24,339 bases of DNA from Acidimicrobiia bacterium (GTDB taxonomy: Bacteria; Actinomycetota; Acidimicrobiia; Spongiisociales; Spongiisociaceae). Shown piece by piece: positions 1 through 24,339 of this stretch. A model generated the notes under the pieces. The model searched no databases and was not told where the DNA came from. It saw only the letters and a program-made list of their open reading frames with translations. The DNA lies in contig JBFGLM010000063.1 of assembly GCA_041576165.1 (NCBI GenBank), positions 1 through 24,339 of the forward strand, read 5' to 3'. The translations under genes were made by a program, and so were the position numbers. Position 1 is the first letter of the stretch; every line of letters starts with the position of its first letter.

Positions 1-2511
1 GACGTCCACCAGGAACAGCAACAACGCGGCTCCGGCCAGCCACGGCCACAATCCGGTCTCGGCTCTTCCCAGCTGGGCGGCCGGGTCGAAGACGCTTGCA
101 GGTTCGGGATCGAGCCGCCCGCCGGACAGCGCAGCGAGGTCTTGGGCCAGGCCAGGATCGGCGCTACGAAAGGCGAACTCATCGGAGTAGGCGGATACGG
201 CGCCGGAAGACCCGGACGCGATCACCGATCCACCGTCCTCCACAGCCACCGACACCCAGTAGGCACCCAACACCCCGGCGGGGGCGGTTCCCACGAAGTT
301 GCCTTCCGTCCCGCGCGACAGTGGCACGGTGATCGTCTCGCCATCCGGTGCTCGCACGGTGGTGCTCGCCGAAGCCGAGCCGGGCGCATCGGGAGCGGAA
401 TAGGAGATCGCCAGTTCGGCGCCCCTCACCTCGATAGACGGCGGCGTCTCACGCCCCGGTGGAACCACGTCTTCGACCACGGTGCCCCAAAAGTCGACGA
501 ACCCGTCCCACACGATCCAATCCGCCGACCAGCGGGCGGTGGCATCAGAAGTCCACGCCGTCACCCGGCCCAAACCCCGCTGCCACGTGGCGAGCAGCGG
601 GTCTTGTTCGCCGACCACCAGCGGCAGGCGGGCCGTGGATTTCGGGTTGGTGAGTACGAAACCTCTGAGCGGTGGTGAAGTCGTGAGGTCCTCGGTCACC
701 GGCGACGACGCGGCGAGTGCCGGCACGAACGTGCCCTCCTGGGCGAGCCCGCGGGCAACCTGCAGCGTCTCCTCTACGAAGATCTCGGGGATCTCTTCGA
801 GGTTCTCGCCCGCGTAGTATCGCCCGCCGCCGATCTCTGCCATGCGTTGCAGCGTGAGGCCGGGGCCCTCCCCGGTGCCAAGGATGCTGAGGGTGACGCC
901 GGCGTCGGCGATGTCGCGCGCCATCGGGATGAGCGTTGCCTCGTTCGGGTCCCATCCGTCGGTGAAGAGCACGATATGGCGCAACGGCTCCTCGGCCGTT
1001 TGGAGGGCGGCGAGGGCTTCCTCCAAGCCACGGGCGATGGCGGTCGTTTCGCCGACCGGGTCCAGAGTGCCCAGAGCCGCTTCCGCGTCGCTGGACCCAG
1101 GAATCTCGCCCAGCGGAATCACCCAGTCAGCTCCGGCCCCGAACGCCACCACCCCGACCCGATCTTGGGAGGTCAGCGCATCAATGGCCAGCGCTGCCCC
1201 CGCCCGCGAAATGTCGGTCTTGTTGACGCCACCTTCGAGGAACTCGCCATCGTTGCAGTGGCAGCGACCCATCGAGCCGGAGGTATCGATGACCAAGACT
1301 TCGGCGACCGGCTGACGCCGGAGCAGGTCGTCGGGGTTGGATCGCACCGGCAGCAAATCCTCCAGTGCGCTGTCTTCGTACCCCCCCAGCCCGTACGATT
1401 GGTCGCCGCCGATCACGACCAGACCGCGGCCAAGGTCTTCGACGTACGCCCGTAGCCGGTCCACCGCGCCCGGTTCGGGCGCCGGGAGATTCACCAGCAC
1501 CACCGCGTCGTAGCTCAGCAGCTCGGCGTCTTCGGGAATAGCGCCCACCTCAGTCGCCGCCATCCCGGCAGAGCGCAGCGCCGCCACCAGCTGATCCGCT
1601 TCACCTTCCTTGCCTTCCACCACCGCGATAGAGGCGCTCCCCAGCACGCGGGCGACACCCTGAGCCCGATTGTTGGCCGGCTGGCTGTCGAACGGTGCCT
1701 GGATCTCAGCCGTCACGTTGAGAAACCCCTGCTCGGTGACGACCGTCGACACCTCAATCTCGTTGACCCCGGACACGAGTTCGGTCTCGATCACCTGGTC
1801 CGTCTCGCCCATCGCCACGTTGAGGCGGGCCGATCCGGCTTGGTTGGAACGCACCACCACAGTGGCCGTCAAGTTCTCATCGATGCGGGCGACCGGTGGC
1901 AATCGCACCGACTCAACCAGGGCGTCTGGCCCCCGGCCCGTGTCCAGCGTCACGATGTCGACGGCGATCCCACGGTCGGCCAATTCCTGGACCACCGGGC
2001 GGGGATCGCCGGTAGTGGGCACTACATCGGTCAACAGCACGATTCGACGCGACCCGGCGGTGGGCAGGATGGCCGCTCCGGACCTCAGCGCGCCGGCGAT
2101 ATCGGTGCGGCTGCCGTCGATGACGGCTCGGATGGGTGCCGGCTGGCGCGGCGGGGCGAGGCTGGCATCGACTCGCAAATCGGAGCCGAACGCAGCAATC
2201 GCCATCTGGTCTTGCGGCCCGGCAGCGAAAACTGCGTCGGCAACAAAGGCATCTTGGGCGGCCACCGCAGCCGCACTGATCGACTCAGACCGGTCGACCA
2301 TGAACAGCACCGATCGAGTGTCGTCGGCGCGGCGTACGGTCGGCTGGGCCAGGGCGGCGATGATCAAGGCAACCGCCAGAGCGCGCGCAGCAACGGCGAG
2401 GCGGTGCTGGGATCGTGCGACCGGCACCCGGCCCCGGCGCGCGACCAGAAGGACAAAGGCGACACCCACTGGTATGGCCAGCAGCCACTGCGGCTGCTCG
2501 AAGCCGATCAT
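1..2511 (-). CDS. Large membrane-anchored double-VWA protein with a central class I glutamine amidotransferase-like domain (3' end runs off the window)
   Basis: Not in the ORF track because it has no stop in the window. Segments translated by hand from ATG 2511, which overlaps the TGA at 2508-2510: MIGFEQPQWLLAIPVGVAFVLLV...ALAQPTVRRADDTRSVLFMVDRSES (MIDAS DxSxS), GLVVIGGDQSYGLGGYEDSALEDLLPV (GATase1-like), VLVIDTSGSM (second MIDAS), HIVLFTDG, and ETGLWPWLAGAALLLFLVDV at the window edge (C-terminal TM). Confidence 0.88.
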   Translation of the reverse strand, partial: MIGFEQPQWLLAIPVGVAFVLLVARRGRVPVARSQHRLAVAARALAVALIIAALAQPTVRRADDTRSVLFMVDRSESISAAAVAAQDAFVADAVFAAGPQDQMAIAAFGSDLRVDASLAPPRQPAPIRAVIDGSRTDIAGALRSGAAILPTAGSRRIVLLTDVVPTTGDPRPVVQELADRGIAVDIVTLDTGRGPDALVESVRLPPVARIDENLTATVVVRSNQAGSARLNVAMGETDQVIETELVSGVNEIEVSTVVTEQGFLNVTAEIQAPFDSQPANNRAQGVARVLGSASIAVVEGKEGEADQLVAALRSAGMAATEVGAIPEDAELLSYDAVVLVNLPAPEPGAVDRLRAYVEDLGRGLVVIGGDQSYGLGGYEDSALEDLLPVRSNPDDLLRRQPVAEVLVIDTSGSMGRCHCNDGEFLEGGVNKTDISRAGAALAIDALTSQDRVGVVAFGAGADWVIPLGEIPGSSDAEAALGTLDPVGETTAIARGLEEALAALQTAEEPLRHIVLFTDGWDPNEATLIPMARDIADAGVTLSILGTGEGPGLTLQRMAEIGGGRYYAGENLEEIPEIFVEETLQVARGLAQEGTFVPALAASSPVTEDLTTSPPLRGFVLTNPKSTARLPLVVGEQDPLLATWQRGLGRVTAWTSDATARWSADWIVWDGFVDFWGTVVEDVVPPGRETPPSIEVRGAELAISYSAPDAPGSASASTTVRAPDGETITVPLSRGTEGNFVGTAPAGVLGAYWVSVAVEDGGSVIASGSSGAVSAYSDEFAFRSADPGLAQDLAALSGGRLDPEPASVFDPAAQLGRAETGLWPWLAGAALLLFLVDV

Positions 2512-4367
2512 TGCGGTCGCCCCACGTCGACCAGCGGCCGATGGCCCGCGGGATCGTCCCGCACCCTGGCCGTGCGCTGCCGGCGGTGTGTCATTCGCCA
2601 CTCGATGGCGAAGAACAGCAACACCAGCAGAAGCAGCAACGGGGCCACCTCACGAATGCTCGAGCCTTCCCCGCCCACCCCGAGCTCGGGTGGAGTCACC
2701 GGCAGCTCCTGGCTGGCGCCGAGGGATTCAATCGAGGCGAATGCACGAACTTCAGCGGCACCCAGCCGCACAGTGCCGTCCGCGGCGCGGTACGAGACGC
2801 CGTACAGCCCGGGTCGTTCGGTGTCGGAAAAGAGGATCGTTCCCGGACGTAGCTCGATCCGAGAGCCATCCGGCCGGCTGATGATGGGCGTCTCTGTCGA
2901 TGAACCGGTCAGAAGGATCGGCGCTCCGGCCTCAGCCACCACCGGGGGAGCAATGTCGTCACCCGCCAGCCAGTGAAGAATGCGGCTTCCCAGAATCGGA
3001 AACGCCACCTGGACCGGCAGGTTCGACTGAGTGAGGTCGAAGGCGGTGTACACCACCCGCACACCGTCCACCTCACCCAGCAGCACCAGCGGCACATCCC
3101 CGGCACTCACGATCGGCAACCAATCAGGGCCGTCCACAATCTGGGCCTCGCCGATCACCACGTCGGACAGATCCGCCCCATCGAGTATCGGCTCGCCGGG
3201 ACGCTGATATGTGACCGCGGTGTTCTGCACCAGTCCACCCAGGGCCAAACCGGGCGCCGGCGCCGGCGGGCGTATCAGCCAGGTCGGGCGATCGAATGTC
3301 TCGGGCAGCATCCCGTCGGCAACCACGATGTCGCCGTCGACTTCCACGGAGGTGCCGGGCGTCGACTGCAACAGCGCGTTGAGGAAGACCGAACCATCTC
3401 CCTCGACGGCTACGGTCAACTCGGGAGCCGTCGCCACTACGCCCGTCGCCCGGTTGTCCATGTCCAGTCCGTCGTCGAGATCATTGCCGTTCTCGTCGAT
3501 CAGACGGGCTTCGATCACCGAGCCGGCGCCGGCCTCCACCGTCATCGCGTCCCGTCCCCGGCCGCCGGCCTCGGTTTCGATCAGGAACACCTGACTGGGT
3601 ACGCCGTCAACGTCGACGACACCCTCGATCTCGGTGCGGGTGAGAGTGAGGTTCTGTACCTCGATGAAGACCTGCGCGCCCTCCCCCGGCACCACGTCGA
3701 CGGACAGCGAGCTGATCGCCACATTGTCGGCCAGCTGATCGGAGACGAGATGGCGGGCGTCGACAATTGGTGTGTCGAACTGAACCCGTTCGGGGTCGCC
3801 GCCGTCGCTGAACAACAGCAGGCTGGTGGGTCGGTCCGGAGTGGCCAAACTGCGCGCCGTCCGGATCGCGGCGTGGAGGTCAGCCACTCCCCCACCCGGC
3901 TCCAGCGATTCGAGGGCCGCGACCACAACCTCCGACTCGCCCGAGAAGGAGACCCGTACGTCCGGGGCGACGCCGGCCGCCACGACCGAGATCAAGTTCT
4001 CGTCCGATGCGCGTTGGGCCAGCTCGATGGCGTTGTCGCGAGCGCTCTCGAACCTACCGGCCATCCCCATCGACCCCGAGATGTCGATGACGAACACCGT
4101 ATGCGGGCCCAGCACGGTTCGCTCGGATATGAATGGGCGCGCGAGCACCAATACGAACAACGCGAGGATCAACAGCTGAAGAATCAACGGCCAGCTGATG
4201 GGTAGTCGCTGCCAGGGCCGGGCCGAGCTGACCGATTCGAGCGACTCTTCCCACAGCATCGTGCTGGGGATCACCCGCCGGTGGCGGCGGGCGCGCAGCA
4301 TGTAGAGCGCAACCAGAGGTACAGCAAGCGCCGCAAGGGCGAGGGCGGCCGGAACCAGCAGGCTCAC
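2508..4367 (-). CDS. BatA N-terminal domain plus VWA domain membrane protein
   Basis: N-terminal PLVALYMLR...PSTMLW...LQLLILALFVLVLARP is typical of BatA-like N-termini. Has MIDAS VIDISGSM and LFSDG, and a C-terminal TM LLLLVLLFFAIEW. The GTG start overlaps the upstream stop. Confidence 0.88.
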   Translation of the reverse strand: MSLLVPAALALAALAVPLVALYMLRARRHRRVIPSTMLWEESLESVSSARPWQRLPISWPLILQLLILALFVLVLARPFISERTVLGPHTVFVIDISGSMGMAGRFESARDNAIELAQRASDENLISVVAAGVAPDVRVSFSGESEVVVAALESLEPGGGVADLHAAIRTARSLATPDRPTSLLLFSDGGDPERVQFDTPIVDARHLVSDQLADNVAISSLSVDVVPGEGAQVFIEVQNLTLTRTEIEGVVDVDGVPSQVFLIETEAGGRGRDAMTVEAGAGSVIEARLIDENGNDLDDGLDMDNRATGVVATAPELTVAVEGDGSVFLNALLQSTPGTSVEVDGDIVVADGMLPETFDRPTWLIRPPAPAPGLALGGLVQNTAVTYQRPGEPILDGADLSDVVIGEAQIVDGPDWLPIVSAGDVPLVLLGEVDGVRVVYTAFDLTQSNLPVQVAFPILGSRILHWLAGDDIAPPVVAEAGAPILLTGSSTETPIISRPDGSRIELRPGTILFSDTERPGLYGVSYRAADGTVRLGAAEVRAFASIESLGASQELPVTPPELGVGGEGSSIREVAPLLLLLVLLFFAIEWRMTHRRQRTARVRDDPAGHRPLVDVGRPQ

Positions 4368-5233
4368 CGCAGGACCTCGAGGCGAGCCATGTCGGCGAGC
4401 GCGTCATCGAGGGCCCGGTCGCCGGCCAGCGCCGTGATGTATTCCATCCCGGCCCGGCGCGCCCGGGCCGCCACGTCGGTGAGGAACCACTCGGCCCGGT
4501 CCACATACGCGTCGATCGTGCCGTAGGAGGTCGATATGTCGACCGCCCGCTCATTCTCGGCGTCGACCAGCCGTAGATCACCGGCGACCGCCGGATCGAG
4601 TTCCGAAGGGGCGAGCACATGGAGAACCAGGCCGCCGCTGGCAACGCCGACACCGGCGATCAGGTCCTCCCAGCCTGGGACCATCAAATCGGAAACGAGG
4701 ACGACCGGACCACTCACCCGGCCTTCGAGAATCACTCGTCGTAGCACCGAACCGTGCGGCACCTCGCCGCCGGGCTCGAGCGACTCCAGCCAGGCTTCCA
4801 GGGCGGGCCACGACGCCAGGTGGCGACCGGTCGGGCCACGGGCGATCGGCTGCGCTCCCGGTCCAGGGACGGCGTGCGGCACCACCCGATCGCCGCCGGC
4901 GAGCGCCGCGAAGGTCACGGCTCCCGCGAGCTCGCGGGCTGTCTGCATCTTGCGTTCGAACGCCATCGACCCGGAACGGTCGATGAACACCCGCACGGGC
5001 AGCTCGTCCTCGGATTCGAACAGCCGGATCAGGGTCACCCCAAGCCGGGCGCGCATATGGTGATCGATGCGTCGGTAATCGTCGCCCGGCACGTAGGGCC
5101 GGTAGTCGGCGAAATCGAGGCTCTCGCCGTAGCGATGTGAGCGGTGGCGACCAGCAAAACGACCCCGCACTCGCCGCCGAGACGCCAGCGCCATCCGTTC
5201 GAGACGAGCGCGGGTCTCGGCATCGAGGATCAT
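4364..5233 (-). CDS. DUF58 domain-containing protein (MoxR-associated, VWA-like)
   Basis: G.HRS...G.SLDFADYRPYVPGDDYRRID signature, FIDRSGSM and LVSD. Directly downstream of moxR. Confidence 0.92.
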   Translation of the reverse strand: MILDAETRARLERMALASRRRVRGRFAGRHRSHRYGESLDFADYRPYVPGDDYRRIDHHMRARLGVTLIRLFESEDELPVRVFIDRSGSMAFERKMQTARELAGAVTFAALAGGDRVVPHAVPGPGAQPIARGPTGRHLASWPALEAWLESLEPGGEVPHGSVLRRVILEGRVSGPVVLVSDLMVPGWEDLIAGVGVASGGLVLHVLAPSELDPAVAGDLRLVDAENERAVDISTSYGTIDAYVDRAEWFLTDVAARARRAGMEYITALAGDRALDDALADMARLEVLR

Positions 5234-6198
5234 GCCGGGACCGTCGGCATCGGATGGGCCTGGAGCACCGCCCCTACCAGATCGTCCGGCGATACCCCGT
5301 CGGCGGTCGCCTCATAGCCCAACACGAGGCGATGGCGGATCGACGATGGTGCGACCGCCCATATGTCCTCGGCCGCCACGTTGGGTCGCCCCTCCATCAA
5401 CGAGTTGGCCTTGCCGCCCAGTATCAAGGCTTGCGCCCCCCGAGGGCTGGAGCCGTATCGCACATAGCGGCGCACCAGCTCAGGTGCCTCCGGATTGTCG
5501 GGATGGGTGGCTCGCACCAGCCGGGCGGCATAGCTGAGCAGGTGAGAACCCACCGGCACCTCGCGGACCAGCCGGGCCATGTCGATCAAGGCCTTGCCAT
5601 CGGCCACCGCCTCCACCTGTTCTTCCCGATCGGACGTGGTTCGCTGCAGAATCTCTACCAGATCTTCGACCTCGGGCATCGTTACCAAAGCCTTGAAAAG
5701 GAACCGGTCGAGCTGCGCTTCGGGCAGCGGGTAGGTGCCTTCCATCTCGATTGGGTTTTGGGTGGCCATGACGAAAAAGGGTTCCGGCAGCGAGTGGGTT
5801 TCACCGCCCAGCGTGACCCGACGCTCCTGCATCGCCTCGAGCAGAGCGGACTGGGTCTTGGGGGTGGCCCGGTTGACCTCGTCGGCCAGCACCAGATTGG
5901 AGAAGATGGGTCCCTCGTGAAACTGGAATCGACCTTCGACGAGGACGTTGGTGCCCAGAATGTCCGCGGGCATCAGATCAGGTGTGAACTGCACCCGGCC
6001 GAATTCGACCGACAGCACCGAACCAAGCGTGTACAGCAGCTTGGTCTTACCCAGGCCCGGCACCCCTTCGAGCAGGACATGCCCTTCGCAAACCACCGCC
6101 CGCAGCACGGTGTCGATCAAGGCCCGCTGGCCGACGATCACCTTGCCCAGCTCGGAGCGGATGGCGTCGAAGGTGGTTGTGAAGTTTTCTGGTGTCAT
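5230..6198 (-). CDS. moxR: MoxR family AAA+ ATPase
   Basis: Walker A GVPGLGKT, RVQFTPDLMPADILG, Walker B LADEVNRATPKTQSALLEAMQE, and ATQNPIEMEGTYPLPEAQLDRF. Confidence 0.96.
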   Translation of the reverse strand: MTPENFTTTFDAIRSELGKVIVGQRALIDTVLRAVVCEGHVLLEGVPGLGKTKLLYTLGSVLSVEFGRVQFTPDLMPADILGTNVLVEGRFQFHEGPIFSNLVLADEVNRATPKTQSALLEAMQERRVTLGGETHSLPEPFFVMATQNPIEMEGTYPLPEAQLDRFLFKALVTMPEVEDLVEILQRTTSDREEQVEAVADGKALIDMARLVREVPVGSHLLSYAARLVRATHPDNPEAPELVRRYVRYGSSPRGAQALILGGKANSLMEGRPNVAAEDIWAVAPSSIRHRLVLGYEATADGVSPDDLVGAVLQAHPMPTVPA

Positions 6199-14385: not shown

Positions 14386-14500
14386 ACCGCAACTTGAGCG
14401 GGGAGTCCGCGGACAGCCCAGGGTCGAAGGTCACGATTAGTCACTTTTCCGGCGAGTCGAGACCGAATGCCACAGCCGGCGCGGTCTGCTCCGCCGGCGA

Positions 14501-14525
14501 TGGGGCGTCGTATACTACGGCCCCA
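14501..14525 (+). promoter_or_regulatory. TATACT -10 box inside an imperfect inverted repeat upstream of the STAS gene
   Basis: TGGGGC-GT-CGTA-TAC-TACG-GCCCCA, with TATACT at 14511-14516. Confidence 0.4.
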
Positions 14526-14544
14526 CTCTCCACGAGCTGGACCA

Positions 14545-14883
14545 ATGACGACACATCTCGAGATCGAACGATCAGAACGGGCTGACGCAGTAGTTGTGGC
14601 AGCAAGAGGTGAGATCGACCTCGCCTCAGCGCCGGAGCTAGAGCGTCATCTGAACGACGCTATCGGCGACGGGCATGTCGTGATCGACTTGCTGGGAATC
14701 ACGTTTGTCGACTCGACCGGCCTACGCGCTCTGATCATGGCGGACGAACGAGCACGGGAGAAGGGCGGCCGGCTGACACTCGTGCTCGCCCCTGGGCCCG
14801 TCACCAAGCTGTTCGACATCACGGGCGTCGATCAGCACCTCACGGTCACGGATTCGGTCGACTCCGCCCTGGCTGCGACCTGA
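14545..14883 (+). CDS. STAS domain anti-sigma factor antagonist (RsbV/SpoIIAA-like)
   Basis: GEIDLASAPEL, VVIDLLGITFVDSTGL (phospho-acceptor Ser in DSTG) and LFDITGV. Start reassigned from 14467 to ATG 14545. Confidence 0.93.
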   Translation: MTTHLEIERSERADAVVVAARGEIDLASAPELERHLNDAIGDGHVVIDLLGITFVDSTGLRALIMADERAREKGGRLTLVLAPGPVTKLFDITGVDQHLTVTDSVDSALAAT

Positions 14884-16074: not shown

Positions 16075-17301
16075 TCAGAATTCGCGGCGTACCGGCAGCA
16101 GAAGCTTGGCCACGAGCCGCTCAGACAGCGACGGTTCGGCCCGGGTGCCGACCATCGGCAGGCTGGCTGCGACATCGTCGTCGAAATGCGCCATGAGCGT
16201 ACTGACGACATCCGGGTCGAGTGTGATCACCGCGACCTCTTCGTCCTTCTCGACCGAGCGGCGGTTGACGTTCACCGAACCGATCATGGCGGCGACGCCG
16301 TCTACCAGCATCGCTTTGACGTGCATCATCGTGGGTTGATACTCCCAAACCCGAACACCGTGATCGACCAGCGACGCGTAGTTGTCCTTGGCGACGATGC
16401 GGCTCACCCGCTTGTCGATGTGCGGTCCCGGGACGACCAGGTCCACCTCGACCCGACGGCGGCGCGCCTCGATGAGCAAGCCCACCAGCTCATCGGTTGG
16501 ATTGAAATACGGCGTCTGGATTCGGATGCTTCTATGCGCGGCAGCAACCAATGCCTCGATCGCTCGCTCGGCATCGTTGACACCGATCTGCGCGGAGCCG
16601 TCGATGACGGCCAGCTTGGTCGAGCCGCACTCCTCGGGTTTGTCCACGTCGATGTCGGCGATATCGATTCTGTGGCCGGTGTCCCGCCAGTCCGTGATGA
16701 ACGCGGCCCTGAGTCCCAGCACCGCCGGGCCTCGAATCTCAAAGTGCGTGTCGCGCCACTCGCTGGGATTACGAGCGTCGCCTTCCCATTCCGATGCGAT
16801 CCCCACCCCGCCGGTGAACGCCACCTTGTCGTCACACACCAGGATCTTGCGGTGGGTGCGGTGATCGGACTCCCATAACTTCCAACGGACAATCGGACGG
16901 AATCGTTCAACGACGGCCCCCGCCGCTCGCATGTCCTCAATGAGTTCCTGCCTCATCGGCAACGACCCGAATCCATCGAGAATGACACGCACCCGCACCC
17001 CGTTGCGGGCCTTTTGGGCCAGCGCGGAGGCGAAACGTCGCGCTATCTCACCGGTCCAGTAGACGAACGTCACGAAGTCGATCGATCGCTCCGCTTCCTC
17101 GATCGCGGCCAGCATTGCCGGGAAGATCTCGTTTCCATTTCGCAACACGCGCAATTGGTTACCGCCCACAAAGACGTTGCCGAGGACTGATTCCACCGCC
17201 CGCTGGACGTGGCGGACGTCGTCGGCATCAGGGGTCGGCGAGCTGATTGAGAACTCGCCACCCGGCTCGTCACGCAGAGGTGATAGGTGCGAGGCGCTCA
17301 T
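16075..17301 (-). CDS. cls: Cardiolipin synthase / phospholipase D family protein (ClsB-like, no N-terminal TM)
   Basis: Two HKD motifs (HRKILVCD, HVKAMLVD), GNQLRVLRNGNEIFPAML, WRDTH and IQTPYF. Confidence 0.9.
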   Translation of the reverse strand: MSASHLSPLRDEPGGEFSISSPTPDADDVRHVQRAVESVLGNVFVGGNQLRVLRNGNEIFPAMLAAIEEAERSIDFVTFVYWTGEIARRFASALAQKARNGVRVRVILDGFGSLPMRQELIEDMRAAGAVVERFRPIVRWKLWESDHRTHRKILVCDDKVAFTGGVGIASEWEGDARNPSEWRDTHFEIRGPAVLGLRAAFITDWRDTGHRIDIADIDVDKPEECGSTKLAVIDGSAQIGVNDAERAIEALVAAAHRSIRIQTPYFNPTDELVGLLIEARRRRVEVDLVVPGPHIDKRVSRIVAKDNYASLVDHGVRVWEYQPTMMHVKAMLVDGVAAMIGSVNVNRRSVEKDEEVAVITLDPDVVSTLMAHFDDDVAASLPMVGTRAEPSLSERLVAKLLLPVRREF

Positions 17302-18131
17302 GCCGGATCCTCCAGCGCGGCCCGTAGGGCGTCGAGGTCCAAGTCAGGCTGGGGGTAGGACAAGTCCATGTCTTCCCACGATTCGATCAGCAACCGCGCG
17401 ACAGCCCAGTTGCGATACCACTTGTGATCTGACGGGACGATATACCAGGGTGCGTCCTCGGTCGAGGTCTCCTGGACGACCCGTCCGTACGCCAGCCGGT
17501 ACCGATCCCACAACCTGCGGGTGTCAAGGTCGCTCTCCCGGAACTTCCAGCGCTTGTCGTGACGGCGGAGCCGCCGCAGGAAGCGCTCCCGCTGTTCGTC
17601 GTACGAGATGTGCAGGAGGCATTTCACCACGGTGACGCCGCGGTCCACGAGGTCGGCTTCGAAACTGCGGATCTCTTCGAAACGTTCGGCGACCGTGTCG
17701 TCATCGAGCGTCTGTTCGGCAATCGGGACGAGAACGTCCTCGTAATGCGAGCGGTCGAATACACCGAGCATGCCCGGTCCGGGCACCTCCCTTTTGATCC
17801 GCCACAGGAAATGATGTTGTTTTTCCTCTTCGGTGGGCTCGCCAAACGACGCGATCTTCACACCGGCCGGGTTGACGAGCCGCACCACGTGCTTGATCGT
17901 GCCGTTCTTGCCCGAGGCGTCGGTACCTTGCAACACCAGAAGCACCGCCCGTTCCTTGGCCGCGAACATCATTTCGTGCAGATCGAAGAGCGCGTCTTCC
18001 ATGTCGTCGAGTCCGTCCTTGGCGTCGTCCTTGGAGGAGATGAACGGGGTTTCACTCTCGGGATACGCAGCGAGCGTGAACGCGTCATCGACGACCTCGG
18101 CCCGCAGGGCATCGCGTACGGAGTCAGTCAT
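17298..18131 (-). CDS. ppk2: Polyphosphate kinase 2 family protein (class III-like)
   Basis: LQGTDASGKNG (Walker A), HHFLWR, FDRSHYEDVL (Walker B), KRWKFRESDL and APWYIVPSDHKWYRN. Confidence 0.93.
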   Translation of the reverse strand: MTDSVRDALRAEVVDDAFTLAAYPESETPFISSKDDAKDGLDDMEDALFDLHEMMFAAKERAVLLVLQGTDASGKNGTIKHVVRLVNPAGVKIASFGEPTEEEKQHHFLWRIKREVPGPGMLGVFDRSHYEDVLVPIAEQTLDDDTVAERFEEIRSFEADLVDRGVTVVKCLLHISYDEQRERFLRRLRRHDKRWKFRESDLDTRRLWDRYRLAYGRVVQETSTEDAPWYIVPSDHKWYRNWAVARLLIESWEDMDLSYPQPDLDLDALRAALEDPA

Positions 18132-19072
18132 GCCGGCACCACCTCTCGCGCACCATCAACGGACTCGTCTTGGCGTGGTTCACACACGCCCGCCCGGGCG
18201 GCCTCCAGCTCGGCAGCCACCGCCAGACCGTAAAAGATGGCAATGGCGGACAGCTGCGCCCAGAGCATGAAGCCGATCACGCCGGCCAAAGGACCATAAG
18301 TATCACCGAACGATCCGCTGGCGTTGAGATAGAAAGCAAGCAGGACCGACACCGCGAACCACAGAATCACCGCAACCGCACCACCCACTGCCAGCCAGCT
18401 CACGGTCGGCTGACGGCGGTTGGGAGCAGCTTTGAACAGAAATCCGAAGGCGATCGGCAGGATCGCCAGCCCCAGTGGCCACCGCACCCAACGCCACACC
18501 GCCAAGAGCTCGTCCTCAAAATAGGGATTGAGTCCGGCGCCGATGGCAGTGAGTACGAAAGCGACCCCGATCAGTGTGCCGGCGGTGAGGGTGAGGACAG
18601 TCGCGAGACCGTAGCGCTCGAATGTGGGGCGGTCGCTGTCGACCCCGTAGATCCTCGACGCGCCTCGCTGCAACTGAGCCATGGCCGTGACGGCGCCCAC
18701 CAGCATGGCGACGCCGCCCACGATGATCGCCGTGAGGTTCCCACCTGACCCGGCAGCGGCGCCTTGCTGGAACACCTGCAGGAACATCTCGGCGGCCGGC
18801 TTCGGCGTGAGGCTCTCGATCACCGCGGCCACCATGCTGCGCAGTTGCCCCTCGCCCAGGCGGGCGGCGAGTGCCACGATGAAGATGATGCCGGGGATCA
18901 CGGCCAGCACGACCTGAAAGGCCAGGGATCGTGCGAACGAGAAGCCGTCCGCGTAGCGAAGACGGATGAATGCGTTCGAGAACAGCTTGCCGTATCCGGT
19001 CCGGCGAGCGGTCTCGGGCGCGTCGCTGCCGTCGAGACCGACGGTTTCGGGGACGTGGGTGACGGTGCTCAT
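18128..19072 (-). CDS. YihY/virulence factor BrkB family membrane protein
   Basis: About six TMs, ARSLAF...IPG, RWP, APNR and YGPLAGVIGFMLW...G. Confidence 0.9.
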   Translation of the reverse strand: MSTVTHVPETVGLDGSDAPETARRTGYGKLFSNAFIRLRYADGFSFARSLAFQVVLAVIPGIIFIVALAARLGEGQLRSMVAAVIESLTPKPAAEMFLQVFQQGAAAGSGGNLTAIIVGGVAMLVGAVTAMAQLQRGASRIYGVDSDRPTFERYGLATVLTLTAGTLIGVAFVLTAIGAGLNPYFEDELLAVWRWVRWPLGLAILPIAFGFLFKAAPNRRQPTVSWLAVGGAVAVILWFAVSVLLAFYLNASGSFGDTYGPLAGVIGFMLWAQLSAIAIFYGLAVAAELEAARAGVCEPRQDESVDGAREVVPA

Positions 19073-19956
19073 TGATCCTCCTCATGGACGCAGACTCGCA
19101 ATGCCGTTGTCTCGACTCCGAACCGCAGTGCGGTGGTGGGCGGTCGTTCTTCACCGTCCAGCTCGTACGGCGTCGGCCGGACTAGATCAATCACGACTTC
19201 GCGCCCCGAGAATCGCTCTACCGGTTCGGTTTCGGTGCCCCAGATCAGGGCCCACCCCGCCGCCAGCCACTCGCGGAGGGTTCGCGGCCGAGCCACCAGG
19301 CCGTCCAGAGCGCCGTCGGTCGGTGATGAGTCAGGAAAGATGTCGAGGCCAGCCTGGATCTGACCGAGGTTGCCGACCAGCACAGTGGTTGTGGGTCCGA
19401 GATGAACGAGTTCTCCGTCGGCGCGGACATGGCTGGGGAAACGCTCGTCGCGCAGGTGGCGCAGCGTGGTCAGGACATACGCAGCCACCCCGAAGCGCTG
19501 TTTCATCTCGCGGCCCGTGTCGTGCATGATTGCCGCATCCAGGCCTACCCCTCCCATGATGGCGAACCGCTCCCCATTGCATATACCCACGTCGAGAGTG
19601 CGGCGACCGGAGCCGAGCGCGATCTCGAGCGCTTCTTTCGTGTCGTCGGGGATGCCCAGATTGCGGGCCAGCAGGTTGCCGGTACCGGCGGGAATCACGG
19701 CCAGGGCCGCGTCCGAGCCGGCCAGGGCTTCCACACAGGCGCGCACAGTGCCGTCGCCACCGCATGCGATCACCAGTTCCGCCCCGGCTGCGAGTGCGGC
19801 CTCCGCCTGTCCCCGGCCGGGATCATCTGGGGTCGTTTCCAACCATGTGACCTCCAGTCCCCGGTCCTCGACGGCAGCCACCAGCCGTTGTGCAACTTCC
19901 TCGTCGGCGACCGGGTTGAGAACAATGGCGATCTGCTGAGTTGAAGTCATATTCAT
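19069..19956 (-). CDS. Diacylglycerol/lipid kinase family protein (YegS/DgkB-like)
   Basis: VLNP, CGGDGT, IPAGTGNLLARNLG, GVGLDA and YELDGE. ATG 19956 overlaps the upstream stop and follows a GGAGG RBS. Confidence 0.92.
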   Translation of the reverse strand: MNMTSTQQIAIVLNPVADEEVAQRLVAAVEDRGLEVTWLETTPDDPGRGQAEAALAAGAELVIACGGDGTVRACVEALAGSDAALAVIPAGTGNLLARNLGIPDDTKEALEIALGSGRRTLDVGICNGERFAIMGGVGLDAAIMHDTGREMKQRFGVAAYVLTTLRHLRDERFPSHVRADGELVHLGPTTTVLVGNLGQIQAGLDIFPDSSPTDGALDGLVARPRTLREWLAAGWALIWGTETEPVERFSGREVVIDLVRPTPYELDGEERPPTTALRFGVETTALRVCVHEEDQ

Positions 19957-20690
19957 CGCACTTCCTCCGGCTGCCTGGGTTCGACCACCCGGTCGGCCCG
20001 CAACGCCCAAACCGCAACACCGAGGCACACAAGACCCAGCAACGCACCTGCCGTGACGTCGGTTATGAAGTGCATACCCCGGTACATGCGAGACAGCGCT
20101 ACGGCGACGGGAGCCAGAATGCCGACCGTCCACGCCATCCCGCGCACGAGCCGGTTTTCGGTGTTCCACGTCACGATCAGCGCCAGGCCGAGGTACAGAG
20201 CCACAGCGGCTGCAGTGTGCCCGGACGGGAAGCTGGCCGTGGGGGGCGAGGGATCGAGTTGTTCCACTGGGGGACGGTCACGGCCGACCAGGAAGGCGAT
20301 GGTCACAAACGTGGTGACTTCGAGTCCCAAGGCGACGACCAGCATCAGCGCCTCCGGCCAGCGTCTCCATACGGCGAGGAATACTGCAACGAGAATGACC
20401 AGCGCGACGACCACCGTGAGGGTGTCAGAGAAGCCCGATCCGATGTCGGACAACAGATCGAGCGTGTCGGTCCGCTGCGCTGCGAACCATCGACTGACCG
20501 AGCGGTCGAACTCGCCGACCGAGGTCGAGGCGAGCGAAGTGACGATCGTGCCAACCACCCATCCGAATGCGACTAGTACTGCAAAGGCGGCTGCGATCAC
20601 TGCCAGCCCCCGGCCGCGCAACGGCCACGGCCCAAACGACCGGTCGGTGTCTCCGCTTCGGCTATCAGCACGAATGTCGAGCGTTGACAT
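19953..20690 (-). CDS. PAP2 family membrane phosphatase
   Basis: RDRP, SFPSGH and SRMYRGMHFITD. Start reassigned to ATG 20690, just after the upstream stop at 20698. Confidence 0.9.
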   Translation of the reverse strand: MSTLDIRADSRSGDTDRSFGPWPLRGRGLAVIAAAFAVLVAFGWVVGTIVTSLASTSVGEFDRSVSRWFAAQRTDTLDLLSDIGSGFSDTLTVVVALVILVAVFLAVWRRWPEALMLVVALGLEVTTFVTIAFLVGRDRPPVEQLDPSPPTASFPSGHTAAAVALYLGLALIVTWNTENRLVRGMAWTVGILAPVAVALSRMYRGMHFITDVTAGALLGLVCLGVAVWALRADRVVEPRQPEEVR

Positions 20691-20697
20691 GGCAACC

Positions 20698-21576
20698 TCA
20701 GCTCGTAACCGGTTCAGGGATGCGCGACGGTTCGGACACCCGCTCCGCCGGTTCACCGAACCGCATGATTCGGCCGCCGAAAGCAACGGCACAGATCGTG
20801 AACCAGGCCCATCCGACGGCCAGCCCGGCCAGGACATCGGTCACCCAATGGACGCCCAGGAGGGCCCGGGTTGCGCCGATCATTGCGGCCAGGAGTGCCG
20901 CTCCCCCGGCCAGCCAGGCCCGGGTTCCGCGACTGGCGCCGATCGACAACACGAGCGCAACCGCGGCGTACGTGGCGGCCCCGGCGGCGGAGTGGCCGGA
21001 TGGGAAGGAGGTCCCGGCCCACCCGGCGAGTTGAGCGATGTCGGGACGTTCGCGTTCGATGAGCAGCTTGAGCCCGTTGCTCACCAAGGCCTGGCCGACC
21101 ACGACCGCGACGATGAAGAGCGCTACGTGGAAGTTCCGGTGGCGGATCCAGCCGTACACAGCCGTGATCAGTGTCACGACGGTGACGACGCCGGTGCCAC
21201 CGAGGTCGGTGATCAGGTTGAGGATCAGGGTGCTCGTGTCGTTTGCGTTCTCCGCGCCCCAGACCGCGACAGATTCATCAAACTGAGCAAAGCCACGTCC
21301 TGTGTCGAGAGTGTCGAACACCCAGCCGGAAAACAACGAGAGACCGAAGACAACCGCCAGCCCAACCGTGAGAAGCAGGCCACCGGCTTTGGTGGGATCG
21401 AGGCGGCGCCGCACAAACCAGGCGAGACGGGGGTATCGGTGCAGCGTTCGTACCAGCCATCGCTCCTCGGCGTCGGGCACGATCGGATCAAAGTCCGTAG
21501 CCCGGGTAAGCGAGAGTGCTATTGCGCCGGCGGCGGCCAGCAACCCGACTATGGAAATGATGATCGTCGTCAACAC
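20698..21576 (-). CDS. PAP2 family membrane phosphatase
   Basis: KLLIERERP, SFPSGH and TRALLGVHWVTD. Start reassigned to GTG 21576 (GGAAGG upstream, directly downstream of the promoter). Confidence 0.88.
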   Translation of the reverse strand: MLTTIIISIVGLLAAAGAIALSLTRATDFDPIVPDAEERWLVRTLHRYPRLAWFVRRRLDPTKAGGLLLTVGLAVVFGLSLFSGWVFDTLDTGRGFAQFDESVAVWGAENANDTSTLILNLITDLGGTGVVTVVTLITAVYGWIRHRNFHVALFIVAVVVGQALVSNGLKLLIERERPDIAQLAGWAGTSFPSGHSAAGAATYAAVALVLSIGASRGTRAWLAGGAALLAAMIGATRALLGVHWVTDVLAGLAVGWAWFTICAVAFGGRIMRFGEPAERVSEPSRIPEPVTS

Positions 21577-21604
21577 AGGCTTCCTTCCGTTGGCTGGCCC
21601 TGGC

Positions 21605-21630
21605 CTACCCCGCCGCCCGAGCCGTAAAAC
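21605..21630 (-). promoter_or_regulatory. SigB/SigF-type promoter GTTT-N16-GGGTAG driving the PAP2-to-cls operon
   Basis: The minus strand reads GTTT tacggctcgggcggcg GGGTAG, about 28 nt before GTG 21576. Confidence 0.72.
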
Positions 21631-21691
21631 ATCCCGAATGCGCCCCCGCTGCTCTGTGAACGGTGTCCCGCCAAAAAGACTCGATTGTGGC

Positions 21692-21717
21692 GTTTGGAGC
21701 CCCGGCTGTACGGGTAG
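21692..21717 (+). promoter_or_regulatory. SigB/SigF-type promoter GTTT-N16-GGGTAG (divergent partner)
   Basis: The plus strand reads GTTT ggagccccggctgtac GGGTAG, 30 nt before ATG 21748. Confidence 0.72.
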
Positions 21718-21747
21718 GCAGTGCCGTAGACGTCGAACCGGACACCC

Positions 21748-22164
21748 ATGACCCCAGTCGATCCTCAACCCGCGTCCTCGACCGGCAACCCGCTAGCGCG
21801 TCTGGCAGCGGCTGTGATGGACCTGATCATCGGTTTGGTCCTGATCGGTCTCGGAGTTGTCGGACTGGTGCTGCCGGTCCTGCCCGGGTGGCTTCTCATC
21901 GGTGCCGGGGCCCTGGTCCTCGCCGGTCGCGTTCCCGCTTTGCGAACAGCGATCGACTGGATGATTGCCCGGCCGTGGGTCCAGGACTCACTCCGGCGAA
22001 TCGCCGCCCGCCGTCAAGGCCGGCGACCGCTGGTTCGTATGCTCAAAATGCCTGTCATCCGCCGAGCGTTGTTCCCTCGCACGCGACGACAGCTCGTCAA
22101 CGACCTGACGCAGTCCGCAGCTGCGAACGCCGGCCCCGATCCTGGAGCCGATCGTGCAGAGTGA
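21748..22164 (+). CDS. Small membrane protein, PGPGW/DUF454-like
   Basis: IIGLVLIGLGVVGLVLPVLPGWLLIGAGALVLA hydrophobic hairpin followed by a basic tail. Preceded by the promoter motif. Confidence 0.65.
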   Translation: MTPVDPQPASSTGNPLARLAAAVMDLIIGLVLIGLGVVGLVLPVLPGWLLIGAGALVLAGRVPALRTAIDWMIARPWVQDSLRRIAARRQGRRPLVRMLKMPVIRRALFPRTRRQLVNDLTQSAAANAGPDPGADRAE

Positions 22165-22714
22165 GCAACCACGGTTCGTCGATCTGAAGTGGGCACTTGC
22201 CGGCGGGGCCCTCACTGCCGCGACGCTCTTTGCTGGAATAGGCGCGGTGGGCCGCATCGGGTCGTTCGAAGCGCTCCGGCTGCTGGAGTCGGTGCTGCCT
22301 ACGGTCAGGTTCTTGACCTCGAGCGTGCTGGCCGCCGGGGTCACGGTCCTCGCGCTGATGCTCACGCTGCTGGGTCTGACGTATTCGACGCAATGGAACT
22401 TTCGGGAAGCCCACTACCGGCGCATCGTGCAAATCTCCACCCTGGCCACGATCACGATTGTCATGTCGATCGGCATCCTGCTCTTCCTCGGCATACCGCT
22501 GGAAGCCGCCGACCGTCTGCGCACCTACTACAACATCGTGTACTACGCAGTGAACGCATCGGCTTCTATCGTGGGTGGAATGCTGGTCAGCACGGTCCTG
22601 ATGTTGCTCCAGACAATTCGTGGACTGGTGGCGATCGGCCACCCGAATTCACAAAGTGATCTGATAGAAGAGGACCCCGCCAAGCCCCAAACTGCCGAGA
22701 TGGAGCAGGTCTGA
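22154..22714 (+). CDS. Hypothetical membrane protein with about four TM helices
   Basis: Four hydrophobic segments and GC-rich third codon positions. Overlaps the upstream stop. Confidence 0.75.
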   Translation: MQSEQPRFVDLKWALAGGALTAATLFAGIGAVGRIGSFEALRLLESVLPTVRFLTSSVLAAGVTVLALMLTLLGLTYSTQWNFREAHYRRIVQISTLATITIVMSIGILLFLGIPLEAADRLRTYYNIVYYAVNASASIVGGMLVSTVLMLLQTIRGLVAIGHPNSQSDLIEEDPAKPQTAEMEQV

Positions 22715-22782
22715 AGATCCCGGCGAACTACTGGATCGGTAGGACTGGGTCTCGCACCATGCCCTTATAGACTGGAAGAGTT

Positions 22783-23721
22783 ATGGACTGGTATCTGGAC
22801 ACCACCGACCGTCAGGCCATCACCTGGCTGCGTCGCGAATTCGAGGCGTATCTGCGCCGGCACGCCGATCAGGAATCCAACATCGATATGGCCGTGCTCG
22901 CATTCGCCGAGCTGGTGAACAACGCAGCCGAGCATGCCACCGGGCCGGTTTGGGTGTCCGTGGACTGGAGTACCGGTCAACCTGTGCTGTCGGTGCACGA
23001 CATGGGTCCATCATTTGAGCTTGCATCGGTGCAGATGCCGTCGCCCACCCAGGAGCGGGGTCGGGGTCTGGCGATTGCTGCGGACGTTGCGGAGCGTTTC
23101 AGCGTCCAGGCCAAAGTCGGCGGTGGATCGAAGGTCGAGGCCGTGCTGCCGGTCGAACGAATGGTCGAAGAGAGCTTCGATCCGGTTCGGCGGACGTTTG
23201 GTGTACTACCCGACCTCGAGGAGGCCGGCCCGGTCGGTTTTGGCAGAGAGTCGTTCCTGCGAGCGCTGATAGTGCAATTGGCCCAAGAACTGGAACGAAG
23301 TCAAGGCCCGGGTGTAGCCCAGGCGGCGGTGGCGCAGGTGGGCATCGACGTCGGATCGCGCATGGAAGAAGAGTTCCGGCTGGCGCGTGAGATCACCGAC
23401 CGGCTGACGCCGGAGCAAGCAGCCGAGTGTTATGTGCGGCTCAAGCACGCGATCGACGGCGATTTCTACGTATTGGAAGCCACCGAGGACCAGATCGTAC
23501 TCGGCAACCGGCAGTGTCCCTTCGGTCTGGCGGTCCAGCATGCCCCGGCGCTGTGCCGGATGACGTCCAGTGTTTTCGGGGGGATCGCCGCTCGTAATTT
23601 TGGCGAAGCTTCGGTCGTACTCGAGCAGCGGATCGCGGTTGGTGATCCTCAATGCCGGGTCGTGGTGAACATCCGACCCAACCCGGGCGAACCCGGGCAC
23701 CGCTACGTATCGCCCGACTGA
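22783..23721 (+). CDS. RsbW-like GHKL ATPase/Ser kinase (HATPase_c_2) fused to a MetOD1/V4R-like domain
   Basis: N-terminal half: AELVNNAAEHA (N box), VHDMGPSF (G1), ERGRGLAI (G2), GGGSKV. C-terminal half: FLRALIVQLA...VLGNRQCPFG...PALCRMTSSVFGGIAA...IAVGDPQCRVVV. TAGACT lies 9 nt before the ATG. Confidence 0.85.
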   Translation: MDWYLDTTDRQAITWLRREFEAYLRRHADQESNIDMAVLAFAELVNNAAEHATGPVWVSVDWSTGQPVLSVHDMGPSFELASVQMPSPTQERGRGLAIAADVAERFSVQAKVGGGSKVEAVLPVERMVEESFDPVRRTFGVLPDLEEAGPVGFGRESFLRALIVQLAQELERSQGPGVAQAAVAQVGIDVGSRMEEEFRLAREITDRLTPEQAAECYVRLKHAIDGDFYVLEATEDQIVLGNRQCPFGLAVQHAPALCRMTSSVFGGIAARNFGEASVVLEQRIAVGDPQCRVVVNIRPNPGEPGHRYVSPD

Positions 23722-24338
23722 GGCTGAGCGGTCTCGGCTCCGGAGCGGAACGCGGCGACGGCCGCTTCGACCATGTCCCGCTCCGACGGCGCTGATTCTC
23801 TGATGGCCACAGCCATGGCATTGCCGATGTGATCACCGGACACGGCGCCCGCCACCTCATGCCGGCGCTGCTGCCACGCCAGCTGGTCCGCCAGGATCGA
23901 CGGATCGGCGCACACCACCGTCGAGCTGAGGGCGCGCACTACCCAGAGCGCATCAGCGATGGGATCCCCCGTCGCGTGCGCCGTCCGCACTGCGTCAACT
24001 ATCCGGTCACATATCTCGGGCAGTCGTGGCTCGAAAATACCGATCCGCCGGGCTGCGTCGTCGGCGCCCGCCCGCGGTATCCACACCTCCATGCCGGCCA
24101 GACGCTCGAGTAACTCGCCGATCGAGCCGGCCAGCGCAACGCCGAACACCTCTGCGCGACCCGGCGCTTGGGTGAAAGCTCTGCCTCCGACGATGATCGG
24201 CACGCGCGCTTCTCGGGCGATCGAGACGACCGAGTAGGCGCGGGCCAGGTTTGCCGGCATTGCGCAGCTGAGAGCGATGACCTCGGGGCCCTCATCATGG
24301 ACGACCGGGATCAGCTGCCCGGCGGATGCGGTGCTGGG
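23703..24338 (-). CDS. Cobalamin (B12)-binding-domain protein with a C-terminal helical domain (5' end outside the window)
   Basis: The frame stays open from 24260 to the window edge: PSTASAGQLIPVVHDEGPEVIALSCAMPANL...VPIIVGGRAF, matching the 3' half of a B12-binding Rossmann fold (..V.LS...GG.AF). Confidence 0.75.
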   Translation of the reverse strand, partial: PSTASAGQLIPVVHDEGPEVIALSCAMPANLARAYSVVSIAREARVPIIVGGRAFTQAPGRAEVFGVALAGSIGELLERLAGMEVWIPRAGADDAARRIGIFEPRLPEICDRIVDAVRTAHATGDPIADALWVVRALSSTVVCADPSILADQLAWQQRRHEVAGAVSGDHIGNAMAVAIRESAPSERDMVEAAVAAFRSGAETAQPQSGDT

Positions 24339-24339
24339 C

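Follow-up and report, generated by a model that had tools for sequence, protein, structure and literature searches.

The stretch of DNA considered here, hereafter the window, is the entire contig JBFGLM010000063.1 (C63), 24,339 nucleotides in length, of an Acidimicrobiia bacterium whose genome assembly counts 5.1 Mb in 161 contigs with a completeness of 96.5%. At 22783..23721 on its plus strand, the open reading frame list and its translation give a gene with an ATG start that encodes, stop codon counted in, a protein of 312 residues where a kinase domain (HATPase_c_2) is fused to a MetOD1 domain. Three parts follow one another along this protein, namely a RsbW/SpoIIAB-type GHKL domain (22822..23139, plus strand; residues 14-119 by Pfam, with a fold match over residues 1-127), a conserved inter-domain linker delineated from the alignment of homologues (23158..23253, plus strand; residues 126-157) and the MetOD1 domain with a predicted V4R/Bet3-type fold (23254..23667, plus strand; residues 158-295), which was found with Pfam, a genome scan, Foldseek, VIA-align and hhalign. 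Both domains lie above the Pfam cut-offs, HATPase_c_2 (PF13581) with an E-value of 1.3e-12 and 48.3 bits against a cut-off of 27.4, and MetOD1 (PF18546) with an E-value of 6.6e-15 and 55.8 bits against 23.8, over profile positions 1-141 of 142. In the genome scan, the fusion gene was present in a single copy and was the sole MetOD1 gene found.

The kinase half and the fusion family

Conservation was read from two sets of sequences, i.e. 31 full-length homologues (55-73% identity) and a 63-row alignment further comprising divergent members and 23 stand-alone MetOD1 proteins. Among the full-length homologues, the N-terminus MDW is common, with W3 invariant and both M1 and D2 found in at least 90%, and no variation is seen at the linker residues R126, P134, L142, P143 and F153. 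From the 63-row alignment, an AlphaFold2 model was obtained that reached a mean predicted local distance difference test (pLDDT) score of 92.5 and a predicted template modelling (TM) score of 0.69, the pLDDT being 74-91 in the linker.

From its sequence, the N-terminal region of 125 residues reads as a RsbW/SpoIIAB-type GHKL domain, the ATP/Mg-binding motifs of which are all intact. The N-box (E43 and N47), the G1 box (D73-x-G75) and the G2 box (G93-x-G95) are invariant in 31/31 full-length homologues, and a profile search against solved structures retrieved RsbW (6m36, E 3.9e-5), with N-box and G-boxes aligned, as well as Rv1364c (3ke6, E 6.2e-4). In this comparison of family profiles with solved structures, the kinase half alone was matched, nothing being retrieved for the MetOD1 half even at E<=10. 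At the structural level, VIA-align of residues 1-127 gave Z-scores of 10.0 for RsbW, 9.6 for UsfX and 9.4 for SpoIIAB (22-24% identity for the latter). As regards the RsbA anti-sigma family (RsbA_anti_sig, NCBIfam NF041045), the protein stays well below the threshold, with 46.1 bits against a cut-off of 210 and through the kinase part alone. Since the ATP/Mg-binding motifs are intact, the domain is expected to bind ATP and to transfer phosphate to the conserved serine of an anti-sigma antagonist of the STAS type.

The fusion is by no means an isolated case. In a large protein collection, 1274 proteins match at E<=1e-3, and both Pfam domains occur in 120/120 of the matches listed, down to 55% identity; the homologues are labelled there as "ATP-binding protein" or "methanogen output domain 1-containing protein", the architecture being thus already annotated automatically in public databases. 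A library of representatives at 50% identity yields 1427 matches at E<=1e-3, including 52 at E<=1e-30, and 450 of 495 candidate stretches, retrieved as pattern matches in contigs of one genome per species, encode a relative. The distribution of the family is nonetheless patchy, as among 401 Actinomycetota genomes sampled evenly and including that of the window, 7 contain a full-length copy (E<=1e-30) and 3 more a stand-alone MetOD1 only. The earlier note on this DNA, made from the letters alone, had described a GHKL kinase fused to a V4R-like domain and had envisaged a one-off assembly artefact as one way in which it could be wrong. The fusion is genuine and is confirmed as a family of Actinobacteria, and the V4R-like nature of the C-terminal half is borne out by the match to the MetOD1 profile and by the fold of the model, as detailed below.

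Other associations of MetOD1 bear on its role. Among 84 of 150 listed representatives covered by an architecture scan, MetOD1 is found on the N-terminal side of a HisKA/HATPase_c histidine kinase in 12, PAS or GAF frequently separating the two, and on that of a sigma-54 activator module in 3; it comes behind a HTH_3 domain in 1 and is the only domain in roughly three dozen. In 5 of the 84 (P0122-P0124, P0139 and P0140), GerE or REC plus GerE is appended to the kinase-MetOD1 unit, and a second HATPase_c_2 follows MetOD1 in 11 proteins of 440-490 residues (P0165, P0175 and P0185 among these variants); besides, the homologue P0118 also carries a match to PF14196. Because other bacterial proteins have MetOD1 at their N-terminal side, before a histidine kinase or a sigma-54 activator, the domain probably acts as a sensory input, a role that the caveat expressed by Galperin and colleagues themselves allows. 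The suggestion that a domain named after an output would serve here as an input is therefore probably right.

The MetOD1 domain and its putative cysteine site

In the paper by Galperin and colleagues, MetOD1 is defined as a domain that resembles HNOB, V4R and ATC hydrolase and shares a three-cysteine cluster with V4R (PMC5847659). With the model of the C-terminal half as a query, Foldseek retrieved Bet3/TRAPP subunits and the phenol-sensing V4R domains of PoxR, MopR and DmpR (E 2.8e-5 to 1e-3), and VIA-align of residues ~146-307 gave Z-scores of 14.6 for MopR, 14.5 for PoxR, 14.1 for DmpR, ~13 for Bet3, 10.1 for the V4R protein MJ1460 and 9.5 for a H-NOX domain. The assignment of the C-terminal half to MetOD1 with a V4R/Bet3-type fold is thus supported by the predicted structure. 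In a protein atlas, V4R clusters are also the nearest named neighbours (0.85-0.87), which is taken as a lead only.

The earlier note had likened four cysteines of this half to the ligands of V4R-type folds. All four are present, i.e. C216 in an AECY context (23428..23430), C245 in the CPFG motif (23515..23517), C258 in LC (23554..23556) and C291 in QCRV (23653..23655), all on the plus strand, and their conservation is uneven. C245, C258 and C291 are invariant in 31/31 full-length homologues and each is present in 62/63 rows once stand-alone MetOD1 proteins are added, and C216 is a cysteine in 22/31 and 27/63 rows, respectively; because it is not conserved, C216 is an unlikely ligand. The stretch LCRMTSSVFGG around C258, as well as D288, is likewise invariant among the full-length homologues.

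For comparison, V4R proteins were sought in 301 sampled Actinomycetota genomes, with a match in 22, and the canonical V4R triad, with about 25 then 7 residues between the cysteines, is found in 15/15 aligned V4R proteins. When the trimmed MetOD1 part of the 63 rows is compared by hhalign with a 7-row V4R subgroup, the alignment extends over the whole domain (E 3.6e-4, 137 columns); it is weaker against all 15 V4R rows (E 3.6e-3, probability 9%). In the alignment with the 7-row subgroup, C258 pairs with the first V4R zinc-ligand cysteine (C151 in DmpR, C155 in MopR), C291 with the third (C185 in DmpR, C189 in MopR) and E281 with a conserved glutamate, and the spacing between C258 and C291 is 33 residues versus 34 between C151 and C185 of DmpR. 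The canonical triad is nevertheless absent, the second V4R cysteine being aligned to R283 and C245 having no cysteine counterpart in V4R. Consequently, the proposal of V4R-like ligands appears right for two of three invariant cysteines, the third, C245, reading from the alignment as a substitute specific to MetOD1, and it fails for C216.

In DmpR, the zinc ligands are C151, E172, C177 and C185 (PMC7264223), and in MopR zinc is bound by C155, C181 and C189 at ~10 Å from the phenol pocket, in a site credited with structural integrity (PMC9556785). By analogy, C245 would sit at the same site as C258 and C291, because it leaves the β-hairpin that borders the zinc site in DmpR. The presumed three-cysteine site (C245, C258 and C291) is probably completed by the acidic residue at 281 and, judging from DmpR, MopR and PoxR, most likely holds zinc. 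In addition, the invariant residues S262 and G266, 4 and 8 positions past C258, would fall, following the alignment, at the DmpR pocket residues Y155 and Y159; the invariance of residues at these pocket positions suggests that one ligand pocket is common to the whole family.

Some homologues bear the Joint Genome Institute name "predicted ArsR family regulator", which prompted the idea of a SufR-like [4Fe-4S] domain; this idea was dropped as unsupported. No NCBIfam family was obtained for 11 stand-alone MetOD1 proteins, and no literature was found linking V4R with SufR.

Neighbouring genes in the window and in related loci

At its 3' end, the kinase gene converges on a gene for a photocobilin-like B12 photoreceptor, the 3' part of which (211 codons; 23703..24339, minus strand; Pfam B12-binding_2 and B12-binding) overlaps it by 19 nucleotides. 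The last 309 nucleotides of contig C60 of the same genome correspond to the end of the window in reverse complement (99.35% identity, 2 mismatches) and, because the contig ends overlap in this way, the minus-strand gene cut at 24339 continues on C60 (L083:2076-2753); the assembly break between C60 and C63 falls within the photocobilin-like gene. On C60, the photocobilin-like gene is preceded by a PAS-SpoIIE (PP2C) gene of 555 residues (L083:412-2079), the stop of which overlaps its start. The photocobilin-like product has a conserved E-W-H motif and matches the CarH light module of NCBIfam (E 4.9e-20), and a full-length homologue from another locus (L012) is predicted to fold like the photocobilins 8j2x and 8j2y (pLDDT 91, TM-scores of 0.82-0.85, 25-26% identity); CarH covers just the first ~200 residues of this L012 homologue. 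For stand-alone photocobilins, possible links to STAS, SpoIIE and PP2C proteins were pointed out by their describers, who called the function "less clear" (PMC10979010); a term search of the main text of that article returned neither 'kinase' nor 'anti-sigma'.

A candidate substrate is encoded 7.9 kb upstream of the kinase gene, i.e. a single-domain STAS anti-sigma-factor antagonist (14467..14883, plus strand). It matches Pfam STAS with an E-value of 6.2e-20 and TIGR00377 with 70.9 bits against a cut-off of 53.45, is the best STAS match of the genome, and its D-S-T-G phosphorylation motif is invariant in 10/10 aligned rows. In the window, this STAS gene is an orphan with no kinase or sigma gene alongside, its counterpart in relatives heading an operon of STAS, RsbW-like and sigma genes. 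On contig C26 of the same genome (L093:966-2683), a pair of RsbW-like and SigB-like genes is found, at the end of which an intact HATPase_c_2 gene of 151 residues converges, mirroring the convergence of the MetOD1 kinase on the PP2C/photocobilin operon.

Gene linkage was assessed by tblastn over 80 kept loci from Acidimicrobiia, Micromonosporaceae, Solirubrobacterales, Gaiellaceae, Nocardioidaceae, Conexibacter and Jiangellales, within the flanks available. A PP2C domain is encoded in the neighbourhood in 22/80 loci, STAS in 15, a photocobilin-like protein in 13, a SigB-like sigma factor in 12 and a small RsbW-like protein in 8, with at least one of these five in 28 loci. Relatives of the window STAS (36-57% identity) lie at most 8 kb from the kinase gene in 10 of the 80 loci, and 11 of the 13 photocobilin-like genes abut the 3' end of the kinase gene with gaps of 12-60 nucleotides. 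At locus L020, for instance, a minus-strand run of STAS, a 120-residue RsbW-like protein, sigma, PAS-PP2C and photocobilin-like genes converges on the kinase gene; at L004, STAS, a 120-residue protein and sigma, plus PP2C, are all upstream of it, and at the Actinoplanes locus L023, STAS, PAS-PP2C and kinase genes stand on one strand. The placement of PP2C hence varies, upstream and divergent in L004, L007 and L015, on the same strand in L023, and downstream and convergent in 11 loci. In a quick maximum-likelihood tree computed for 80 kinase rows, L026 being left out for a stop codon in the match, 18 of the 23 PP2C-linked rows, the window's included, fall within a single clade with good support that comprises 22 rows from Acidimicrobiia.

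Next to the sigma factor, the place of an RsbW is taken by small proteins of 117-130 residues, encoded between the STAS and sigma genes in 10 loci (L020:12652-13011, minus strand; L004:2258-2617, minus strand; L093:1140-1496, plus strand; and 7 more). They match the N-terminal part alone of HATPase_c_2 (19.6-31.8 bits) and, in a 14-row alignment, 10/10 lack both the N-box Asn and the G1 Asp, the G2 region being deleted or replaced; in the same alignment, three MetOD1 kinases and the stand-alone 151-residue HATPase_c_2 of C26 retain the N-box Asn and the G1 Asp. These small RsbW-like proteins are probably kinase-dead anti-sigma factors. As a PP2C phosphatase implies a phosphorylated substrate and the small proteins are degenerate, the kinase must be an intact GHKL protein from elsewhere, for which the MetOD1 fusion and the 151-residue HATPase_c_2 of C26 are both candidates on their motifs. 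The view of the MetOD1 kinase as the sole intact GHKL protein near the sigma operon is rejected, relatives of the 151-residue protein occurring in 5/80 loci (L018, L020, L042, L050 and L062).

Directly upstream of the kinase gene, with a gap of 68 nucleotides, lies the gene of a multi-pass membrane protein of 186 residues (22154..22714, plus strand), for which no Pfam family scores above cut-off; it is syntenic in 15/80 loci by tblastn (43-64% identity) and better conserved than the photocobilin gene. A promoter and terminator scan of 21600-24339 found nothing. Further away on the minus strand, the window holds an aerotolerance-type (Bat-like) operon at 1..6198, with a MoxR AAA_3 ATPase, DUF58 and two BatA/VWA proteins, beside which lie an ABC transporter pair and two large open reading frames without Pfam match (6198-7802 and 9710-11737), as well as a lipid/phosphate run at 16078..21768 comprising PLD-like, PPK2, BrkB/YihY, a DAGK/YegS-like lipid kinase and two PAP2 phosphatases. 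Elsewhere in the genome, a second and separate partner-switching cluster is present on contig C34 (3221-4956, minus strand), where a 536-residue frame with SpoIIE and HATPase_c_2 is followed by two STAS genes. In another lineage, four Micromonospora loci (L029, L031, L033 and L041) have CrcB upstream and a fusion of CbiX with a tetrapyrrole methylase downstream, L029 also having a NicO nickel/cobalt transporter; this second corrinoid-related neighbourhood may be a coincidence.

Proposed mechanism, rival readings and known systems

The best reading of the fusion, held with moderate confidence, is that of a sensor-gated partner-switching kinase. The RsbW-type half would bind ATP and phosphorylate the serine of a STAS-type antagonist, and may additionally hold a sigma factor. 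The MetOD1 half would read a ligand in the pocket common to the family, or oxidation or metal loss at the cysteine site, and the change in the sensor would pass through the conserved linker, so that the kinase or partner-binding activity would go up or down. In the window clade, the kinase would be the likely counterpart opposing the PAS-PP2C phosphatase, which appears co-transcribed with the photocobilin-like photoreceptor, and STAS phosphorylation, hence the activity of a SigB-like sigma factor, would merge the MetOD1 signal with light. As to the signal itself, a small-molecule ligand next to a structural zinc is tentatively placed first, ahead of a thiol/zinc redox switch, which is possible at a lower level of credence; a Fe-S or tetrapyrrole cofactor seems unlikely, and any other signal somewhat more so.

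Several observations weigh against this reading. At the sequence level, the kinship with V4R is weak, as Pfam V4R (PF02830) has no match at E<=1 in the 312-residue protein and none anywhere in the genome, the best hhalign probability, obtained with the 7-row V4R subgroup, amounts to 37%, and the profile comparison of untrimmed MetOD1 and V4R alignments covers 26 columns with a probability of 3.6%. For the kinase half, the Z-scores of 9-10 exceed the background quoted for the tool only moderately. Regarding the genomic context, no family-wide partner emerges, since 52/80 loci have no partner-switching gene in their flanks; the neighbours elsewhere are highly diverse, the PP2C/photocobilin linkage is nearly confined to the window clade (18/22 rows), with PP2C in just 5/58 rows outside of it, and this linkage may be partly or much inherited by shared ancestry. 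Lastly, the 151-residue HATPase_c_2 beside the sigma operon could be the STAS kinase instead.

Among the rival explanations, the one that survives best is that of the earlier note, i.e. a one-component anti-sigma factor where the GHKL domain sequesters a sigma factor that is freed upon a change in ligand, metal or redox state at MetOD1, with no STAS/PP2C cycle. The RsbW-type fold and motifs fit it, the loci devoid of partner-switching neighbours suit a self-contained regulator, and the variants tailed by GerE or REC plus GerE indicate that the module can be a self-contained sensory unit. It is nonetheless doubtful, and considered unlikely, as a sigma factor, where linked, is accompanied by a small RsbW-like protein of its own, following the classical order of STAS, RsbW and sigma, a sigma gene is near the kinase gene in just 12/80 loci, and the strict conservation of the ATP-binding residues argues for catalysis over mere binding. 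With PAS-PP2C, STAS, a SigB-like sigma factor and a separate small RsbW-like protein adjoining the latter in the window clade, the fusion rather looks like one kinase in a multi-component partner-switching network.

A less probable explanation would be that the kinase is unrelated to the partner switching of sigma factors and has another target, or works as an ATP-dependent switch on, e.g., a regulator of the LuxR/GerE type, the synteny being an inherited gene order. Across the family, most neighbours are indeed unrelated metabolic or transport genes, the linkage is concentrated in one clade and natural REC-GerE and GerE fusions exist; against this, PP2C is found in differing arrangements, including the 5 rows outside the main clade, and in 12/13 loci (the probe's own excepted) the photocobilin gene shares no more than 34-59% identity with the L012 probe, yet 11/13 abut the kinase gene.

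More speculative still is a division of the two jobs of RsbW, where the kinase-dead RsbW-like protein would hold the SigB-like sigma factor, and the MetOD1 fusion would be the dedicated STAS kinase acting in trans, opposed by the PAS-PP2C switched by photocobilin and light; in its boldest form, the MetOD1 pocket, of H-NOX/V4R fold, would bind a tetrapyrrole (bilin, corrinoid or haem). In that case, each of the two arms of the switch would sense light or the tetrapyrrole status. The weakest of all, that MetOD1 is the output or catalytic part, e.g. a C-S hydrolase akin to ATC hydrolase, with GHKL as a regulatory ATP sensor, draws on the ATC hydrolase similarity and the related enzymatic activity raised by Galperin and colleagues (PMC5847659), on the PF14196 match of P0118 and on the extreme conservation of the motif around C258, but is very improbable given that ATC hydrolase has no match at E<=1 in the 312-residue protein, that the closest solved folds are ligand sensors and that MetOD1, where it comes before a histidine kinase or a sigma-54 activator, is placed as an input.

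Returning to the sensor-gated partner-switching kinase, what is new is the combination of such a kinase with a previously undescribed built-in sensor. The fusion is not described in the literature found for MetOD1, for V4R with anti-sigma factors or for partner switching with B12-binding domains, a coverage that leaves out most subscription journals. The control of partner-switching kinases is usually ascribed to their partners; a built-in V4R-type sensor in several hundred actinobacterial proteins would give partner switching a direct chemical or redox input. Besides, MetOD1, so far the provisional "output" of methanogen response regulators, would gain a testable role, and the linkage with the pair of photocobilin and PP2C genes would offer a concrete route to the function of stand-alone photocobilins.

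Compared with RsbW, SpoIIAB and UsfX, the fusion has the same GHKL fold, N-box, G1 and G2, with STAS, PP2C and SigB-like sigma genes nearby in the window clade. Whereas these proteins are single-domain and of ~140-160 residues, the fusion adds 190 residues of linker and sensor, and the place of a RsbW-type gene next to sigma is held by the degenerate small RsbW-like protein, not by the MetOD1 fusion. Rv1364c and the RsbA family are alike in that RsbW-like domains are fused there to other signalling domains, none of these multi-domain proteins having MetOD1 or V4R as far as the literature found shows. For the neighbouring photocobilin-like gene, the likeness to known photocobilins, which are photoreceptors with B12 and biliverdin, extends to the match of the L012 homologue with 8j2x and 8j2y over the full length and to the conserved E-x-H motif.

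Methanogen response regulators such as MA2445 of M. acetivorans have the same PF18546 domain with three conserved cysteines (PMC5847659), MetOD1 being placed there behind REC and provisionally named an output, whereas it stands here behind a GHKL kinase in aerobic Actinomycetota; in a preprint, the function of methanogen MetOD1 is given as still not known (bioRxiv 10.1101/2024.10.04.616672). For a redox reading of the cysteine site, a precedent is MsvR, a methanogen protein combining wHTH and V4R where three conserved cysteines modulate the output with the redox state (PMC3729527), though it differs by the canonical spacing of C206, C232 and C240 and by a DNA-binding output; for a purely structural zinc, the precedent is MopR.

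A further parallel is the V4R domain of DmpR, MopR and PoxR, which is the best structural match over ~150 residues, aligns with the fusion at the glutamate and at zinc cysteines one and three, and is an N-terminal input domain for an ATPase partner, as is MetOD1 in other proteins. The differences lie in an identity of 11-17% in the fold alignments, the lack of a Pfam V4R match, the loss of the middle zinc cysteine, with C245 in its stead, and an output that would be a serine kinase in the fusion instead of the AAA+ activator of DmpR, MopR and PoxR. The pocket helix of aromatic V4R sensors varies with the effector, unlike that of the MetOD1 kinase family, where it is invariant. The cysteine site of the fusion, which retains V4R cysteines one and three, is devoid of the second and has an additional cysteine in CPFG, would represent a natural variant of the site that binds zinc in DmpR, MopR and PoxR.

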